From a virus (taxonomy: Duplodnaviria > Heunggongvirae > Uroviricota > Caudoviricetes), in the IMG/VR virus record IMGVR_UViG_2548876940_000012, positions 1 to 13,189 of that record: a DNA stretch of 13,189 nucleotides; one strand, given 5' to 3'. The position numbers were made by a program, and so were the translations under genes. A model generated the notes under the pieces. It was not told where the DNA came from. It ran no database searches and saw only the letters and a list, made by a program, of their open reading frames with translations. Positions 1 to 12,618 of the stretch are shown here, piece after piece (positions within the stretch are counted from its first letter, which is position 1; every line of letters starts with the position of its first letter).

Positions 1-72
1 TGAACTCCTGAAAATGGCTGTGAAAATATCGCCCGCGAAATGCCAGGCTGATTAGGTAAACAGGAAAGGGGA

Positions 73-753: not shown

Positions 754-1131
754 TTACGCAGGTAGGTAAAGATATGATTGTGGTGGCTTAATATTACTAC
801 CTAGAGCAGAGATAGGAATTGGTTCTTTATATCTTTCCACTTCACCAATTTTTATTGCGTAGGCCTTTTCTCTACCTGAATAATATGAGTCATAAAATTG
901 CTTAGAAATACCTGCGTGTTTTTCCGTCTTTTTCCAAAGAGATTCCGGTTCGTCACTTAGTATTGATTCAATACGGAATTGACCAACAACTTTACCTAAT
1001 GGCATCGTGGCATAAATAACAACGGTGCTAATTTGCGGATTTTTGAATATACCTTTACGAAACTCGAACCGCTTTGTTCCGTTCAATATTTTTTCTGCAA
1101 ACTCAGGCTTAATGGATAATAAAACTTTCAT
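754..1131 (-). CDS. ASCH-domain (PUA-like fold) protein, 125 aa
   Basis: N-terminal GTKRFEFR matches the ASCH signature G-x-K-x-x-E-x-R. Overlaps the upstream ORF by 23 bp (1109-1131). AT-rich relative to the prophage backbone. Confidence 0.7.
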   Translation of the reverse strand: MKVLLSIKPEFAEKILNGTKRFEFRKGIFKNPQISTVVIYATMPLGKVVGQFRIESILSDEPESLWKKTEKHAGISKQFYDSYYSGREKAYAIKIGEVERYKEPIPISALGSNIKPPQSYLYLPA

Positions 1132-2182
1132 TTATCTTGCCTAACTCGATGATCTTTAAGAACTGCTCATTTGTGAGTTTAAAGTGACTCCATCGGAATG
1201 CACGCGAACCATTTAGCCCCACATGATCTATTAAAATAGCACGATTGGGTCTCTTTGGCAAAGACAGATTGTATGTGAATCTTATAATGAAAGGGTATCG
1301 ACGTTCTTTATAGATTTTTCTGAGTTCATCTTCAGAAAATACGCTAAAACGAATACAATAGTCTACAAAACTATCTTCGCTTAAAAATTCAGAAATATTT
1401 TTTACGCTCTCAACTACACATAATGTACTGGCTACAGAACGATAGCGAGCTGGCCCTTTTTTGTCTCCGGTTCTATAGATGACAATGATATCTCCTCTTT
1501 TCATTCCCATCACAGAACGCATTCCACATATGTAAATTTTATGAATGCTGTTAGCATGGGATATATCTTTGACAATATCTGGTGATTCATTTACAAGTTT
1601 TGAATCAGGGAATAGTCTAGTGTGATATTCGGGATAAATCGCCAGTAAATATTTGTTGGCCCTTGATGTCATTATTCGAGGGTAATCTAATAAAATATCA
1701 CCATAAGGCTCATGCAAAGACCTCGCATATACAAACTCTTTCCCGTTATGTGTTTCTTTTTCACCATGAATGTAAAATCCGTACGTTTGGAAAAGTTTTA
1801 TTAGATGGACGTGTTTGTCGAAAACAGTAACATAAATATCATCAGATTTTGATGAAAATGCATGGTCAAACGCTTTTTTTAGAAATCGTTGTCCGCGAAG
1901 GGTGCCTTTAGATTCAAATTTGAATGTTCCTATCTTTAGATGACGTCCTGGTGGGAGCGCTGGATTAATGTCATTTGCATCATCATTTTCTTTTAGATAC
2001 ATAAAACCTTCGATTTTATGCTTGTCATCATAGAGCACATAAGCTGATTCTCCTTCTCTGGCTTTTTTTTCTAACCAAAGAGGAAACTCTTTATAATCTT
2101 TTTTTAAAGAGTCAAAAAATGGGTCATTGTGATCAAAATCAGAGAATTTCTCATATTTTAAAGTATCCATTAAGTTCTCCAT
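1109..2182 (-). CDS. Two-domain protein, 357 aa: GNAT-like N-terminal region and PUA/EVE-like C-terminal region (tentative). Alternative start at 2170 (Met5) has a GGAG 6 nt upstream
   Basis: Residues ~45-155 have a GNAT-like pattern (RGQRFLKKAF ... IYVTVFDKHVHLIKLFQTYGFYIHGE). Residues ~215-240 (KIYICGMRSVMGMKRGDIIVIYRTG) resemble the EVE/PUA-like core. No terminator separates it from cI upstream. AT-rich. Confidence 0.65.
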   Translation of the reverse strand: MENLMDTLKYEKFSDFDHNDPFFDSLKKDYKEFPLWLEKKAREGESAYVLYDDKHKIEGFMYLKENDDANDINPALPPGRHLKIGTFKFESKGTLRGQRFLKKAFDHAFSSKSDDIYVTVFDKHVHLIKLFQTYGFYIHGEKETHNGKEFVYARSLHEPYGDILLDYPRIMTSRANKYLLAIYPEYHTRLFPDSKLVNESPDIVKDISHANSIHKIYICGMRSVMGMKRGDIIVIYRTGDKKGPARYRSVASTLCVVESVKNISEFLSEDSFVDYCIRFSVFSEDELRKIYKERRYPFIIRFTYNLSLPKRPNRAILIDHVGLNGSRAFRWSHFKLTNEQFLKIIELGKINESFIIH

Positions 2183-2250: not shown

Positions 2251-2940
2251 CTATCCATGCTTCCTATACGTCTGCGGCATGCTCCCAATAACTTTCCCGA
2301 AGATAAATACCCGGTTCATCTCATCTTTCTCGATCGGGTCCCACGGTGAGTAGCTTTTGTTATCAGAGATAACCAGCAGCTTATCCTTCATCATTTGCAG
2401 GCGCTTTACATGGGCTGTGTCGTCGTACAGAAACGCATAGATACCATCACCGTCGAAAGATTTAACCGTGATATCAACGAATAGAAGATCACCAGGTTCA
2501 ATCGTTCCTGACATGCTGTCACCGCGTACGTTAATGATGCGGATATTTTCTGCCTTCCTACCATCGAACATGTGACGAGCATCGTCAAACGAGTACTCAA
2601 CCGAGCGTAGAACTTCTACAAACTCACGGTTGATGACTCCCGGCCCAGCACTGACTTCTATATCAAGAACGTCAATCTTGAAGTATTTGGAATGGCTGAC
2701 AGTTGATTGTATTGGTTGCACTGTACTGTCTGACATATTTCCAACGCCAGAAGATAACCATTCTGCGCGCACACCCAAAGCGTTCGCGATCTCCACGATT
2801 TTAGTTGTTTGATTAGCTTTCCCTGTTTCGATTTTCTGAATAGCAGCCTGGCTAACCCCGACCAAATCCCCAAGCGCCTTTTGTGTAAGGCCTCGCGCTA
2901 ATCTGGCTTCTTTAAGTCTTTCTGAGAGTGTTGTTTTCAT
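2251..2940 (-). CDS. cI: CI-like prophage repressor: N-terminal HTH (XRE type) plus C-terminal LexA/S24-type autopeptidase domain
   Basis: MKTTLSERLKEARLARGLTQKALGDLVGVSQAAIQKIE is an HTH; the C-terminal region has GDSM...GD-LLFVD and a K, typical of S24 self-cleaving repressors. The start was moved to the internal Met at 2940 so that the operator palindrome lies outside the CDS; the longest ORF runs to 3006. Confidence 0.9.
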   Translation of the reverse strand: MKTTLSERLKEARLARGLTQKALGDLVGVSQAAIQKIETGKANQTTKIVEIANALGVRAEWLSSGVGNMSDSTVQPIQSTVSHSKYFKIDVLDIEVSAGPGVINREFVEVLRSVEYSFDDARHMFDGRKAENIRIINVRGDSMSGTIEPGDLLFVDITVKSFDGDGIYAFLYDDTAHVKRLQMMKDKLLVISDNKSYSPWDPIEKDEMNRVFIFGKVIGSMPQTYRKHG

Positions 2941-2981
2941 AGTCCAAATGTACAACCAAGGTTTTATTCCATCAAACGAAA

Positions 2982-3006
2982 ATGGTTGTTGACTAAAAAC
3001 AACCAT
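2982..3006. promoter_or_regulatory. OR operator: perfect 9-bp inverted repeat ATGGTTGTT-N7-AACAACCAT
   Basis: Read directly: ATGGTTGTT (2982-2990), gactaaa, AACAACCAT (2998-3006), between the divergent cI and cro starts. Weaker related half-sites lie at 2930-2935 and 2952-2958. Confidence 0.65.
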
Positions 3007-5768: not shown

Positions 5769-5914
5769 CGGTTAGCTACTCAGGATGATAGGGTGGGGCA
5801 AGTGAGTATGAAGCGGATTTTCAGGAATGCCGTCAGAGTTTGGAAATAAAGTGGGTTTTCTAGTGGCAAGAGACTTGATAATATTTAGTTCTTTAAATCC
5901 AAGGAGATAGGGTT

Positions 5915-6409
5915 ATGAGAAAATTTATTTTAGCCTTTGTCATAAGTGCCTCGTTTACAGCAAATGCTGGTGTAGAGAAGTTAGGGCCGTGGATAACAAA
6001 GTCTGAGATAAATAAAATGACTGACCAGACTGACTTTGTGGCTCTTAATTTATCACCAGATTCATATAACAAAGCAGGTACTGATCGTGCAACTTCACTG
6101 GTGTTGCGTTGTAGTGATAACAAAACAGATGCCTATTTATCATTCAATGATTATATGGGGTCGGACAACCCAAGAATTACAGTGCGGTTAGATGGCGGAA
6201 AGCCGGTCAAGAGTGTTTGGGGAGGTGGGGAAGGCGGTGATTCTGCATTTGCTCCACAACCAATACAATTTATAAAGACCTTGGCTAAGCATAAAAAAGC
6301 TATTTTTGGGTTTGAACCTTATGGATCAACTATGCAAGTAGTTGAGTTTGACTTGTCTGAGATTGATAAGGTTGTGGAAAAAATTTCACAGTCTTGCAAT
6401 TGGAAATGA
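5915..6409 (+). CDS. Secreted/periplasmic hypothetical protein with Sec signal peptide (moron)
   Basis: N-terminal MRKFILAFVISASFTANA with an A-N-A cleavage motif. AAGGAGA RBS. Two Cys residues (C66, C161). AT-rich. Followed by an intrinsic terminator. Confidence 0.7.
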   Translation: MRKFILAFVISASFTANAGVEKLGPWITKSEINKMTDQTDFVALNLSPDSYNKAGTDRATSLVLRCSDNKTDAYLSFNDYMGSDNPRITVRLDGGKPVKSVWGGGEGGDSAFAPQPIQFIKTLAKHKKAIFGFEPYGSTMQVVEFDLSEIDKVVEKISQSCNWK

Positions 6410-6426
6410 CAAAAAAATTTCATATG

Positions 6427-6454
6427 AACCCAGTTGGCGCTGGGTTTTTTATTT
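6427..6454 (+). terminator. Rho-independent terminator after the secreted-protein gene
   Basis: Stem AACCCAG / CTGGGTT (6427-6433 and 6440-6446), loop TTGGCG, then a T-run TTTTTTATTT. Confidence 0.65.
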
Positions 6455-6873
6455 CAGTAGCCAATAATGCATTCAAAATCTCTTACTTGAGAAACGGCCT
6501 ATTTGAGATTTCAGTCGTGGCAGGATGATCAGTTGATTCGAGTATTGACGCATTTACGTTCTGAACGGCTGTAATAAAGTTGCGGGAGAGAAATGCCGCT
6601 AGTATTTTGTAATTAATTGAATGCTGAAGGTTTAATGAGAAGTCAAGAACACTACTTGTACTATAATCGTTCGATGTTAGTGAGGGTTTGATGCAAAAAA
6701 TGAAGTGATTGACCCTAAATTTGCGCGATCAGCGACAGATTGTACACCGAGATCCTGTGGGCTGGAATTTGCAGAGAAATACCGAAAATGATATCCAATA
6801 TTGTTTTCAGTTCCTACATCATACCTGATAAGGGTATAATCATAAAAATTAGGATAATTCAAGTTATAATTGT

Positions 6874-7290
6874 ATGAATAAAAACGACCTTGAAGCATTA
6901 TCTGACACTAGGCTTAATGAGGCCAAATGCTTGCTTGATCATGGCTTTTTTCATGGTGCATATTATCTTTGTGGGTATGCAGTTGAATGTGCATTGAAGG
7001 CCTGTATTGCCAAGTCATTTTTACAACATGAGTTTCCAAACAAAAAAGTCGTAAATGATTCATATACTCATGATTTGTCGCAACTTCTCAAAATTGCCAA
7101 CTTACATCAAATTTTGATTGCTGACGCAAAAAATGATGTTTCGTTGGAGATTAACTGGTCGGTCGTTAAAGACTGGAGCGAGCAATTTAGATACGACAAT
7201 AACATAAGTAAAGCTATGGCCGAACAATTGTTTGATGCTGTAGGTGACCAAAATTCTGGAGTTTTGAAATGGGTAAAAGCACACTGGTAA
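6874..7290 (+). CDS. HEPN-domain protein (classical HEPN type), 138 aa; putative RNase toxin/effector
   Basis: Helix motif GAYYLCGYAVECALKA (E-x2-LKA), H-D-L motif (SYTHDLSQLL) and a later R-Y (EQFRYDN), as in classical HEPN/HepT-type domains. A GGAG for the downstream gene lies inside its 3' end. Confidence 0.65.
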   Translation: MNKNDLEALSDTRLNEAKCLLDHGFFHGAYYLCGYAVECALKACIAKSFLQHEFPNKKVVNDSYTHDLSQLLKIANLHQILIADAKNDVSLEINWSVVKDWSEQFRYDNNISKAMAEQLFDAVGDQNSGVLKWVKAHW

Positions 7291-7670
7291 TCGGCAGAGA
7301 GTTGACAAAAGATATGGAATTCTCAGGTCAATTTTTATTAAAAAAACTCAAGTTACAGAATTTAACTATTGATGCTGCAATGTGGTTTTATTACCCAGAT
7401 CTATCTTGGAGATATATTTTAGTTATCAGTGACTTCTCAGAACGTGGACCGGCAGAAATATATAGAAAAATCAGTGAGATAAATAGAAATAGCATATCAA
7501 AAAAGTATAAGCCGATACCATTAGAAGCAATTGAGGCTAAGGGGGATTCAGCTTTTATTTATAAAATGTTAAAAGGATTTGCTAGAGTCAACGATGGTAA
7601 AGTTCGCGTTTCTAATTCTATGGTAAATGGTTTAGAAATCGTTGACTGTCTGATCTATGAGTTAAAATAA
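7269..7670 (+). CDS. Hypothetical protein, 133 aa; overlapping partner of the HEPN gene; no nucleotidyltransferase (MNT) motif detected
   Basis: Overlaps the HEPN ORF by 22 bp, with a GGAG 8 nt upstream of its ATG. Lacks the G-S...D-x-D/E Pol-beta signature. AT-rich. Confidence 0.55.
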   Translation: MGKSTLVIGRELTKDMEFSGQFLLKKLKLQNLTIDAAMWFYYPDLSWRYILVISDFSERGPAEIYRKISEINRNSISKKYKPIPLEAIEAKGDSAFIYKMLKGFARVNDGKVRVSNSMVNGLEIVDCLIYELK

Positions 7671-7741
7671 GAAATCTCTTGCTGGGTATCATTATTGTTT
7701 AAATGACTTTTGATTTTCAATAATCAACTTGTCATAATTAA

Positions 7742-8517: not shown

Positions 8518-8800
8518 TTTGAGAAAAGCAGCGCGTGGTCGGGAATGCCAGGTAAGAATCCCTGGCGTATGTAATGGCAATTCTGAAACGTCTGTACTGG
8601 CACATATCCGGCTGACTGGATTGTGCGGCACCGGTACGAAACCGCCAGACCTGATTGCCACCATTGCATGTTCTGCCTGCCACGACGAAATCGACCGCCG
8701 CACGCATTTTGTTGACGCTGGATATGCAAAAGAATGCGCGCTGGAAGGTATGGCGAGAACGCAGGTTATCTGGCTGAAAGAGGGGGTAATTAAGGCGTGA
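8510..8800 (+). CDS. ybcO: YbcO-family putative nuclease (DLP12 YbcO-like), 96 aa
   Basis: Start at [10 protein letters not shown] with a GGAGG RBS. Cys-rich CNGN...CSACHDEID motif. Recognised as near-identical to E. coli YbcO from memory. Confidence 0.8.
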
Positions 8801-9159
8801 ATACCTACAGCATCACATTACCCTGGCCTCCGAGCAATAATCGCTATTACCGCCATAATCGCGGGCGCACGCACGTCAGCGCAGAGGGGCAGGCATACCG
8901 CGATAACGTCGCCCGAATCATTAAAAACGCAATGCTGGATATCGGCCTGGCTATGCCTGTGAAAATCCGTATTGAGTGCCACATGCCGGATCGCCGTCGC
9001 CGTGACCTGGATAATCTGCAAAAAGCCGCTTTTGACGCACTCACCAAAGCAGGTTTCTGGCTGGATGATGTTCAGGTCGTTGATTACCGTGTTGTGAAGA
9101 TGCCCGTTACCAAAGGTGGGAAGCTGGAGCTGACCATCACTGAACTGGGGAATGAATGA
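8797..9159 (+). CDS. rusA: RusA Holliday-junction resolvase, 120 aa
   Basis: [24 protein letters not shown]... is recognised as essentially the E. coli RusA sequence (from memory). GTGA overlap with the ybcO stop. Confidence 0.9.
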
Positions 9160-11072: not shown

Positions 11073-11448
11073 GCTGGTTATTGTTGCCTTCTTTGTTACC
11101 GTCATTGGTTCCTTCATCTGGTCTGCCGGGCATTACTACAGCAAATATCTGCACGAAAAGGAGCGTGTTGATGAGGCTATACGAAATGCTGAATCAGCAA
11201 CTGCCATTACCCGTAACGTTCTGCAATCACTGCAAATCATCAATACAGTTATAGAGGCTAACCAGCATGCAAAACAGCAGATTGCACTGGAGTCACAGAG
11301 AACCCAGGAAGATATCAAAGTGGCTGTTGCGGATGATGATTGTGCTTCACGTCCTGTGCCTGCTGCCGCTGCTGACCGGTTGCGGAAGTACGCGGACAGT
11401 TTACGTGAACACTCCGGCGGTACCACTGCCAGCCAGCCTGACTTCTGA
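11056..11448 (+). CDS. Rz: Rz-like i-spanin, 130 aa
   Basis: N-terminal TM segment (LVIVAFFVTVIGSFIW), a periplasmic region rich in charged residues with a single Cys near the C-terminus. Overlaps the R 3' end. Contains the start of the Rz1 frame. Confidence 0.75.
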   Translation: MKLRYKLVIVAFFVTVIGSFIWSAGHYYSKYLHEKERVDEAIRNAESATAITRNVLQSLQIINTVIEANQHAKQQIALESQRTQEDIKVAVADDDCASRPVPAAAADRLRKYADSLREHSGGTTASQPDF

Positions 11449-11584
11449 AACACCGATTCCAGTTGTACCTAGTCCACTGACATATGGTGCTAGCCTGGAA
11501 CTGAATGCGAGTTTGTTATCTGCATTAGCGCAATGCAATAGAGATAAAAAGGATATTCTAAAAATAGGATATCAAAATGAATAA
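11333..11584 (+). CDS. Rz1: Rz1-like o-spanin lipoprotein, +1 frame relative to Rz, extending beyond the Rz stop
   Basis: Lipoprotein signal MMIVLHVLCLLPLLTGC with lipobox LLTG-C. Pro-rich mature region. Starts inside Rz at 11333 and ends 136 nt after the Rz stop. Confidence 0.7.
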   Translation: MMIVLHVLCLLPLLTGCGSTRTVYVNTPAVPLPASLTSETPIPVVPSPLTYGASLELNASLLSALAQCNRDKKDILKIGYQNE

Positions 11585-11620
11585 ATATTTTCCTGAAAAT
11601 GATTGTAACTGTGCTATAAA

Positions 11621-11626
11621 TATAAT
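11621..11626 (+). promoter_or_regulatory. Perfect TATAAT -10 hexamer upstream of the 169-aa moron gene; no convincing -35
   Basis: TATAAT at 11621-11626, 24 nt upstream of the ATG at 11651, with AAGGTGAG as RBS. Confidence 0.3.
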
Positions 11627-11650
11627 CATCAAATAATATAAAGGTGAGTT

Positions 11651-12160
11651 ATGGAAAGGTTTATAAAATCAATTGAATCTTCAATTGAAAGTGAGAATTG
11701 GTTAGCGGCATTGTTTATGGCTCTTGCTATGCCTGATATTTGCAGGAGCGTTGAACGTCCCAAAATAGGTAAGGGTGAAACAGGGAAATGGTATAAAGAT
11801 TGGGTTTCTCGTTATCTTGAAAATAAATATACATCCGGTACACATGAACAGTGTCGATTTTATGCGGATGATTTTTGGCTGTATCGTTGTTCTTGTTTAC
11901 ATGCTGGACAGGATCCAGAGAACAGGAAAAGAATGATGCAGTTTAATTTTACACCACCACCTAGGCCAAATTGCCAAGTGCATTTAAATCACTTAAATGG
12001 CAAACTTCAGTTGCAAATAGATGTGTTTTGTCGAGATATGATTGAGGCAGTCAATCAATGGCGTACTGAGGTCGAGGATACGCCAGAAATTAAGGCTCGT
12101 ATGGATTCTCTGATAAATATATCATTAGCATCTTTTGGAACATTCATTGTACTTGGTTAA
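11651..12160 (+). CDS. Hypothetical moron protein, 169 aa, with an Rx4H motif (YRCSCLH); possible HEPN-like effector
   Basis: AT-rich island between the lysis genes and the HNH/terminase genes. R-x4-H (R-CSCL-H) resembles the HEPN catalytic motif. Bounded by a -10 hexamer upstream and an inverted repeat downstream. Confidence 0.6.
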   Translation: MERFIKSIESSIESENWLAALFMALAMPDICRSVERPKIGKGETGKWYKDWVSRYLENKYTSGTHEQCRFYADDFWLYRCSCLHAGQDPENRKRMMQFNFTPPPRPNCQVHLNHLNGKLQLQIDVFCRDMIEAVNQWRTEVEDTPEIKARMDSLINISLASFGTFIVLG

Positions 12161-12166
12161 ATATTA

Positions 12167-12208
12167 ATGAAGTGAATTTTACAGTGGGTACTAAAAGGTT
12201 CACTTCAT
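12167..12208 (+). other. 10-bp inverted repeat ATGAAGTGAA ... TTCACTTCAT with a 22-nt spacer, downstream of the moron gene; possible terminator
   Basis: Read directly (12167-12176 and 12199-12208). The loop is long for a canonical intrinsic terminator and the 3' T-tract is weak. Confidence 0.3.
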
Positions 12209-12267
12209 TTAATGATTTCCCTAACACAAATTAGTTTTTAGAGAGGAAACTATTTAGGACATTAATA

Positions 12268-12618
12268 ATGCCCCCTCGAACCCCAAAAGCCTGCCGTGTT
12301 CGCGGCTGCCGCTCTACAACCACAGACCCGTCAGGCTACTGCGAAAGCCACAAAAGCGAAGGCTGGAAGCAATACAAACCAGGACAATCCCGTCATCAGC
12401 GCGGCTACGGTTCGAAGTGGGACAGTATCCGCGCGCGTGTCCTGAAGCGTGACAAAGGCCTGTGTCAGTTATGTCTGCGTGCTGGTGTGGTGCGTGAGGC
12501 GAAAACTGTTGACCACATCATCCCTAAAGCGCATGGCGGCACTGATGCTGACAGTAATCTGCAGAGTCTGTGCTGGCCGTGTCATAAGGCGAAGACGGCC
12601 CGTGAACGGTTAAATTGA
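12268..12618 (+). CDS. HNH endonuclease (terminase-associated, HK97-like packaging module), 116 aa
   Basis: HNH motif: CQLCLRAG ... VDHIIPKAHGGTDADSNLQSLCWPCHKAK. Located immediately upstream of the small terminase. Confidence 0.9.
   Translation: MPPRTPKACRVRGCRSTTTDPSGYCESHKSEGWKQYKPGQSRHQRGYGSKWDSIRARVLKRDKGLCQLCLRAGVVREAKTVDHIIPKAHGGTDADSNLQSLCWPCHKAKTARERLN

Follow-up and report, generated by a model that had tools for sequence, protein, structure and literature searches.

HepS (STM14_3211; PDB 9OIJ/9OIK) of the Salmonella prophage Gifsy-1 is a solo HEPN tetramer that is opened by the tail-tip protein J and then cleaves tRNA anticodon loops, and its homologues occur from Bacillaceae to Enterobacteriaceae, often on prophages (PMC13043305). 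Similarly, Tha-1 and Tha-2 of S. aureus prophages are tail-activated, by the minor tail proteins of incoming phages, and lead to abortive infection (PMC11087260). RAZR (PD-T7-4) combines a zinc finger with DUF4145, a divergent HEPN domain, has portal or recombinase rings as its activators, and can be over-produced without toxicity (PMC13017515). HEPN toxins of the HepT/MntA type (PDB 7ae2, 5yep, 1jog) are invariably accompanied by an MNT antitoxin gene. Prophage-borne abortive infection by a single HEPN protein is thus already established by HepS, Tha and RAZR, which stay latent until bound by a structural protein of a phage, and what would be new at the locus described here is the protein family, for which, by analogy with these systems, single-protein anti-phage defence appears the most likely role.

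The locus lies in the IMG/VR virus record IMGVR_UViG_2548876940_000012, of which a stretch of 13,189 nucleotides, called the window in the following, was analysed as a whole. The window covers the early region, the lysis genes and the beginning of the packaging genes of a lambdoid prophage of the SfV/ST64B-like type with E. coli as its host. Its gene order runs from a cI-like S24 repressor, cro/YdaS, YdaT and the replication proteins O and P through NinB, YbcO, RusA, the antiterminator Q, holin, lysozyme, Rz and Rz1 (PF10828 and PF23793) to an ORF of 169 aa and an HNH endonuclease. The features of the region around this ORF are the following.

11333..11584, plus strand: left flank, Rz1/LysC o-spanin gene at the end of the lysis cassette (PF23793 LysC; coordinates from the RefSeq annotation of an identical region)
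11585..12267, no strand assigned: AT-rich island with cargo (moron), filling the variable Rz1-HNH slot (from GC content, homology breaks and presence/absence)
11612..11620, plus strand: candidate extended -10 element TGCTATAAA (TGnTATAA conserved in homologue loci)
11621..11626, plus strand: perfect TATAAT, overlapping or adjoining the conserved element (read from the sequence)
11642..11648, plus strand: Shine-Dalgarno-like AGGTGAG (read from the sequence; GGTGA kept at the same position in homologue loci)
11651..12160, plus strand: CDS of the stand-alone protein of 169 aa with predicted HEPN-like fold (PHROG 18591; hypothetical protein WP_024228295.1)
11885..11902, plus strand: codons R79-C-S-C-L-H84, the predicted catalytic R-x4-H (R79 at 11885-11887, H84 at 11900-11902)
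12166..12209, plus strand: inverted repeat, a terminator-like hairpin just 3' of the stop codon (arms 12166-12185 and 12190-12209)
12268..12618, plus strand: right flank, HNH endonuclease preceding the terminase small subunit (PF01844; from the annotation of the E. coli STK78-E prophage)

The island of about 680 bp has a GC content of 0.346 (0.376 within its CDS) compared to 0.478 in the lysis genes and 0.576 on the HNH side. When phage genomes were searched with megablast, the Rz/Rz1 and HNH flanks matched SfV, SfIV, SfI, SfII, ST64B, 118970_sal3, SKA5, 720R4 and 689R6 at 85-94% identity, while the island itself had no match in any of these flank-sharing phages. In pairwise alignments with 720R4, 689R6, SKA5 and 118970_sal3 the homology broke on the left at 11547-11591 and resumed at 12266-12268, which is the start codon of the HNH gene. 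The slot between Rz1 and HNH is empty in SfV, and in the four aligned phages it holds the following.

vB_EcoM-720R4: empty, about 70 bp
689R6, L081:881-1387: unrelated ORF of 168 aa, GC 0.39
SKA5, L082:742-1062: unrelated ORF of 106 aa, GC 0.39
118970_sal3, L083:736-1290: unrelated ORF of 184 aa, GC 0.35, with a predicted N-terminal hydrophobic segment

The three slot ORFs of these phages are each annotated as hypothetical protein, and none is related to the family studied here. With an insertion that is present or absent between conserved phage genes and deviates from them in base composition, the island is a self-contained moron at a cargo hot spot, in which a single gene stands between a candidate promoter and a terminator-like hairpin. 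The preliminary description of this DNA had recognized an AT-rich single-gene moron between the lysis cassette and the HNH/terminase genes, encoding a protein of 169 aa with the peptide LYRCSCLHAG. All of this is borne out by the base composition, the ORF at 11651-12160 and the collinear phages that lack the gene or carry unrelated AT-rich single genes in the same slot, and the island coordinates given at that time coincide with the homology breaks. In lambda, bor and lom are AT-rich morons of the late region near Rz, which are independently transcribed and flanked by a promoter and a terminator, and whose products are outer-membrane proteins affecting serum resistance and adhesion. The island resembles them as AT-rich cargo among late genes near Rz with flanking promoter and terminator signals, whereas its gene encodes a predicted cytoplasmic, enzyme-like protein. 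Among 5426 complete E. coli genomes the island was present in 19, at an identity of at least 97.8% and always as a single chromosomal copy. One 100% identical copy is found in E. coli STK78-E, where the genes for the small and large terminase subunits, portal, protease and capsid come next. The early region of the STK78-E prophage differs from that of the window, and between Q and holin this prophage (L001:9940-11351) carries a KwaB-like (Kiwa) gene and an ORF of 173 aa on the opposite strand; this interval is another cargo slot.

Two further AT-rich regions with cargo were observed in the window. The first (754-2182, minus strand, GC 0.35) is a two-gene unit directly downstream of the cI-like repressor gene (2251-3006), that is, in the position of lambda rexAB. 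It encodes a protein of 356 aa matching the PADLOC candidate PDC-M11A (E 2.5e-133) and an ASCH-domain protein of 124 aa matching PDC-M11B (E 5.9e-51), and it is probably a second, repressor-linked defence cargo. The other, a third island (5850-7700, plus strand, GC 0.365) between the replication gene P and ninB, contains a VasI-like ORF of 164 aa (5915-6409), a gene for a canonical HEPN protein (PF05168, 6874-7290) and, overlapping the latter, an ORF of 133 aa without a family (7269-7670). The PF05168 protein has a weak match to PDC-M28A and reads R-Y-D-N-N, without His, in its motif region; this third island may encode a HEPN-based pair with an atypical partner.

Sequence signals for a promoter and a terminator of its own are present in the moron, both at sites that generic scans did not call. 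For their analysis IMG/VR contigs and a Serratia fonticola prophage were compared, which encode proteins 60-77% identical to that of the window and whose upstream flanks are unrelated to those of the window. TGnTATAA was invariant in six of six aligned upstream regions (proteins 60-100% identical) with differing surrounding sequence; it is located about 30 nt before the start codon, with the GGTGA ribosome-binding site next, and by itself the pattern is not rare (2 matches compared to 1.1 expected). The preliminary description had pointed to a perfect TATAAT upstream of the gene, which is indeed found exactly at 11621-11626. However, this hexamer is not conserved in the homologue loci, relative to which it arises via two extra bases, and the conserved element is the overlapping TGCTATAAA instead. 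A consensus promoter scan called no sigma-70 site at TATAAT/TGCTATAAA because no -35 hexamer fits, and an extended -10 element such as TGCTATAAA fits a missing -35. The functional -10 is more probably TGCTATAAA than the adjoining TATAAT. The inverted repeat, which had been placed at 12167-12208 before, has arms of 20 nt that are 80% complementary and is predicted to form an RNA hairpin of -19.7 kcal/mol (z = -4.47), with none of 200 shuffled sequences folding as well. It was not flagged by a generic terminator scan because it is AT-rich with a weak T tract, while most of the compared homologue loci have a textbook GC-rich terminator right after the stop codon (CCGCC-loop-GGGCGG-TTTTTT or CCGCC...GGGCGGTTTTTT). 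Since both TGnTATAA and a downstream terminator or hairpin recur across diverged loci, the promoter-gene-terminator layout appears to travel with the gene.

Two other sequence elements were noted. Just upstream of TGnTATAA several homologue loci (L011:4207-4227 and equivalents in L013, L016 and L018) contain a short GC-rich hairpin (CAGGCAttcactgaGTGCCTG or GAAGCTCttcactgaGGGGCTTC) that is absent from the window and that may be a moron-insulating terminator or an operator. Two copies of the palindromic 9-mer TCAATTGAA, 12 bp apart, lie in the 5'-terminal part of the CDS (window 11669-11689); the pair encodes the peptide repeat SIESSIES and could either merely reflect this repeat or be a protein-binding site. 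A search of the island against Rfam gave no known RNA element at E<=1.

The nested small ORFs of the island, on either strand, encode 44-53 aa, and the 169-aa frame was taken as the gene because it is conserved across phyla, unlike any nested ORF. Judged by sequence, the gene is real and under selection. It is assigned to phrog_18591 (function unknown), and its product is a hypothetical protein in every source. Searches of Pfam, NCBIfam and PADLOC with the protein gave no match; the PADLOC-DB v2 system HMMs, including those for PD-T7-4/RAZR, AbiV and the PDC candidates, returned no family at E<=10, and a literature search with the protein accession and the PHROG identifier found no papers. A word-indexed search retrieved 26 relatives, and an exhaustive HMM search from their alignment yielded 2881 clusters (50% identity) at E<=1e-3 and 1780 at E<=1e-10. 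Nearly all members are stand-alone proteins of 160-210 aa, with one C-terminal TPR fusion recorded by Pfam among 150 diverse members, and the identity of the homologues ranges from 98% down to about 25%. Relatives were found on 102 viral contigs (IMG/VR), and 122 relatives came from genomes that cover the majority of the bacterial phyla (Proteobacteria, Firmicutes, Actinobacteria, Cyanobacteria, Bacteroidota, Chlorobi, Planctomycetota, Verrucomicrobiota, Acidobacteria, Chloroflexi, Nitrospirae and several CPR phyla) as well as one archaeon, a Woesearchaeote. Isolated phages with relatives comprise E. coli phage ECP1, Bacillus phage SPbetaL5, 35 Arthrobacter phages, Gordonia phage Bowser and Acinetobacter phages. 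The ECP1 member (L092:3501-3944; record 8614-9057) is 46% identical and lies in an unannotated gap after the lysis genes.

In order to survey the genomic neighbours, three genes on each side, called with a simple longest-ORF caller, were clustered for 116 independent loci, of which 41 were viral clusters and 75 genomic loci. A neighbour family was present in 6 of these loci at most, the recurring ones being endolysin, spanin, integrase and UmuD-like genes. There is therefore no antitoxin, sensor or other partner, and the gene works alone; a toxin-antitoxin arrangement of the type II HEPN-MNT kind, in which a conserved antitoxin gene would be adjacent, is ruled out by these loci. The sites themselves vary. 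The gene lies after Rz1 and before the packaging genes in the prophage studied here, in a Serratia prophage whose head module differs, and in ECP1, it adjoins the integrase gene in a Bacillus SPbeta-like prophage and both the integrase and the immunity repressor genes in Arthrobacter phage Popper, and in Gordonia phage Bowser it is found in the same central region near the integrase gene. In a Melainabacteria chromosome it stands beside genes for an AAA_15/AAA_21 ATPase and a DEAD/ResIII helicase. This locus (L087:3732-5536), in which the ATPase is accompanied by an ORF of 166 aa, a DUF2283 gene and a helicase with a faint nSTAND3 match, resembles a defence island in its gene content. A stand-alone gene at prophage cargo hot spots in many lineages supports the accessory or defence cargo that the preliminary description expected at this position.

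R79 and H84 were the only fully invariant columns in an alignment of 173 sequences, most of which represent 50%-identity clusters. This is the outcome of a check that the preliminary description had itself named, namely whether R and H are conserved among homologues. An R-x4-H is present by chance in 25% of shuffled versions of the 169-aa protein, and the evidence for the motif is its invariance across the aligned family, not its mere presence. The motif region is otherwise conserved at C80 (95%), L83 (90%) and G86 (95%), resulting in the local signature L-R-[C/N]-x-x-L-H-x-G. The residue after the conserved R in HEPN families is usually N, D or H, which is typical but not obligatory (PMC3710099). 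In 95% of the members here it is Cys, and in the remaining 8 of 173 it is Asn, giving the canonical HEPN RNxxxH. Outside the motif D29 (99%), D74 (90%) and H111 (96%) are strongly conserved, and the positions conserved in at least 90% of the sequences comprise N16, W17, A20, L21, L25, P28, D29, I30, C31, Y48, W51, Y60, D74, C80, L83, G86, F100, H111, F126, C127 and W137. A Cys/His metal cluster was considered and ruled out: substitutions at C31, C80 and C127 (by Ala, Val, Ser, Gly or Asn) are not coupled between the three positions, which makes core packing look likelier.

The AlphaFold2 model obtained from a 16-sequence alignment (pLDDT 85.3, pTM 0.81) contains helices at residues 2-13, 17-35, 44-55 (plus 57-60), 72-84, 89-95 (short), 123-141 and 145-153 and three strands between 98 and 122. 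In the model R-x4-H is at the C-terminal end of helix 72-84 with a loop after it, in line with the position of Rx4-6H at the end of helix 3 that has been described for HEPN domains (PMC3710099). The non-helical stretch after the motif helix and the four-helix up-down bundle with an insert between helices 2 and 3 likewise correspond to the HEPN topology. HEPN families often have, in addition, a conserved acidic residue in helix 2, upstream of the motif and close to it, to which the near-invariant D29, placed in the earlier helix 17-35, or D74, at the start of the motif helix, may correspond. Similarity at the level of sequences or profiles to a curated HEPN family was, however, not detected. 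Pfam searches with 150 diverse family members gave no HEPN family even at E<=1, PDB sequence searches with the single protein and two family profiles returned noise only, and Foldseek found nothing in the PDB and family members only in BFVD. Comparison by hhalign with the PF05168 HEPN alignment resulted in a probability of 0.6%, the comparator having been built from the other HEPN gene of the window, which lacks the motif His and thus provides a weak test. At the sequence level the family thus has no detectable membership in curated HEPN families or in known or candidate PADLOC systems. Since HEPN families are mutually very divergent (PMC3710099), the lack of a profile match lowers the claim to HEPN membership without excluding it. 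The earlier suggestion of a HEPN-like R-x4-H holds with respect to the invariant motif and the predicted fold but is not backed by any Pfam, PDB-sequence, Foldseek or hhalign match. Taken on fold and motif, in spite of the missing sequence similarity, the protein is likely to be a member of the HEPN superfamily.

The comparison with the described effectors shows a number of parallels. Like HepS, the protein is small and stand-alone, has R-x4-H in a HEPN or HEPN-like fold, and is accessory cargo of a lambdoid prophage without a partner gene; its homologues, like those of HepS, occur from Bacillaceae to Enterobacteriaceae and often on prophages. The LT2 Gifsy-1 record contained no ORF with the published HepS motif positions, and the protein, compared with HepS through the published description, is not a detectable member of the HepS family as far as testable. 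With Tha it would share the organization of a prophage-encoded single effector with a HEPN R-x4-H, its expression in the lysogen being predicted. Tha differs in its length of 301 aa, an extra N-terminal region, the motif RNSIMH and an antisense unit for its cognate inhibitor Ith, whereas the protein studied here has 169 aa and a single HEPN-like domain, and the search for a conserved gene beside or antisense to its own found none. RAZR is distinguished by an N-terminal Cys4 zinc ribbon and R-x7-H spacing (R146/H154), while the protein here matches neither DUF4145 (Pfam) nor PD-T7-4 (PADLOC) and has cysteines that are not metal-cluster-like. In contrast to the HepT toxins it has no conserved neighbour, and its motif is followed by an additional insert rich in strands (residues 98-122).

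By analogy with HepS, Tha and RAZR, we infer RNase activity, oligomerisation, latency, a phage trigger and a defence phenotype for the protein, which would act as a latent solo HEPN RNase and abortive-infection effector of the prophage. Expressed in the lysogen from an extended -10 promoter of its own, the protein would form a latent homo-oligomer, in which two R-x4-H motifs would form a composite active site as in HEPN RNases. A product of another, infecting phage would activate the latent protein, while the resident prophage would have no trigger of it. Once activated, the protein would cleave RNA, either tRNA or mRNA, without a metal cofactor, and the resulting stop of translation would abort the infection. 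We give this chain of events, when taken in its entirety, an even chance of being correct.

A genuine HEPN-type RNase might alternatively serve the phage rather than host defence, through the shut-off of host or competitor RNA late in the lytic cycle, through counter-defence, or as a partner-less addiction toxin that stabilises the prophage. Such a role would draw on the same fold and motif evidence as the defence role, and homologues are found in isolated phage genomes, too. Moreover, the gene is located inside the Q-dependent late operon, between lysis and packaging genes and in the same orientation, so that its transcription would also be expected in the late lytic phase. On the other hand, a conserved candidate promoter element and a terminator-like hairpin of its own are typical of genes expressed in the lysogen, and collinear phages may have the gene, lack it or carry unrelated cargo in its place, so that it does not appear to be part of the lytic programme. 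In other phages, furthermore, it is found beside integrase or repressor genes, not in late operons, and many copies are chromosomal. Considering both sides, we regard a phage-serving RNase as unlikely.

Equally improbable in our view is a helical-bundle protein outside the HEPN superfamily, for instance a metal-dependent DinB-like hydrolase or a ligand- or protein-binding module, that uses H84, H111, D29 and D74 (and N16) and in which the spacing of R-x4-H is coincidental. Against the HEPN reading stands the strong conservation of N16-W17, P28-D29-I-C31 and H111 in the alignment, which is not explained by the HEPN paradigm. A function as an accessory or regulator of the adjoining lysis cassette, such as a lysis-timing or spanin-associated factor, would suit the position directly after Rz1 in this prophage, the Serratia prophage and ECP1 and the endolysin and spanin genes among the more frequent neighbours, but is highly implausible given that related phages with the same lysis genes lack the gene or have unrelated genes in its place, that most homologues lie away from lysis genes, beside integrase, repressor, portal or chromosomal genes, and that the protein is a predicted soluble helical bundle with enzyme-like invariant residues.

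Returning to the reading as a latent defence RNase, it can be extended, tentatively and with somewhat less confidence than for the single protein, to the family as a whole. Its members would then be minimal, partner-less HEPN-type immune effectors that sense a phage trigger and form an abundant, hitherto unrecognised family. Their architecture would consist of an N-terminal NW...PDIC helix, the R-C-x3-H motif and a beta insert with a conserved His, and the family, with about 2,900 clusters at 50% identity, would be entirely missed by current defence-finder tools. The family is of interest for its size and breadth without annotation, its minimal architecture, the conserved NW...PDIC and the H111 within the beta insert, and the ease with which it can be tested. 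No Pfam, NCBIfam or PADLOC model covers it, and all databases consulted call its members hypothetical proteins. The Rz1-HNH junction of SfV/ST64B-like phages, in turn, is a cargo hot spot that can be mined for further candidates. If the proposed role is true, a family of thousands of sequence clusters would represent single-gene RNase defence on temperate phages, and thus a widespread component of prophage immunity that is not counted by current annotation pipelines. In addition, the 169-aa protein would provide a compact model for how a partner-less HEPN nuclease stays silent and how it recognises infection without harming its own phage, questions that HepS, Tha and RAZR have made tractable only recently.
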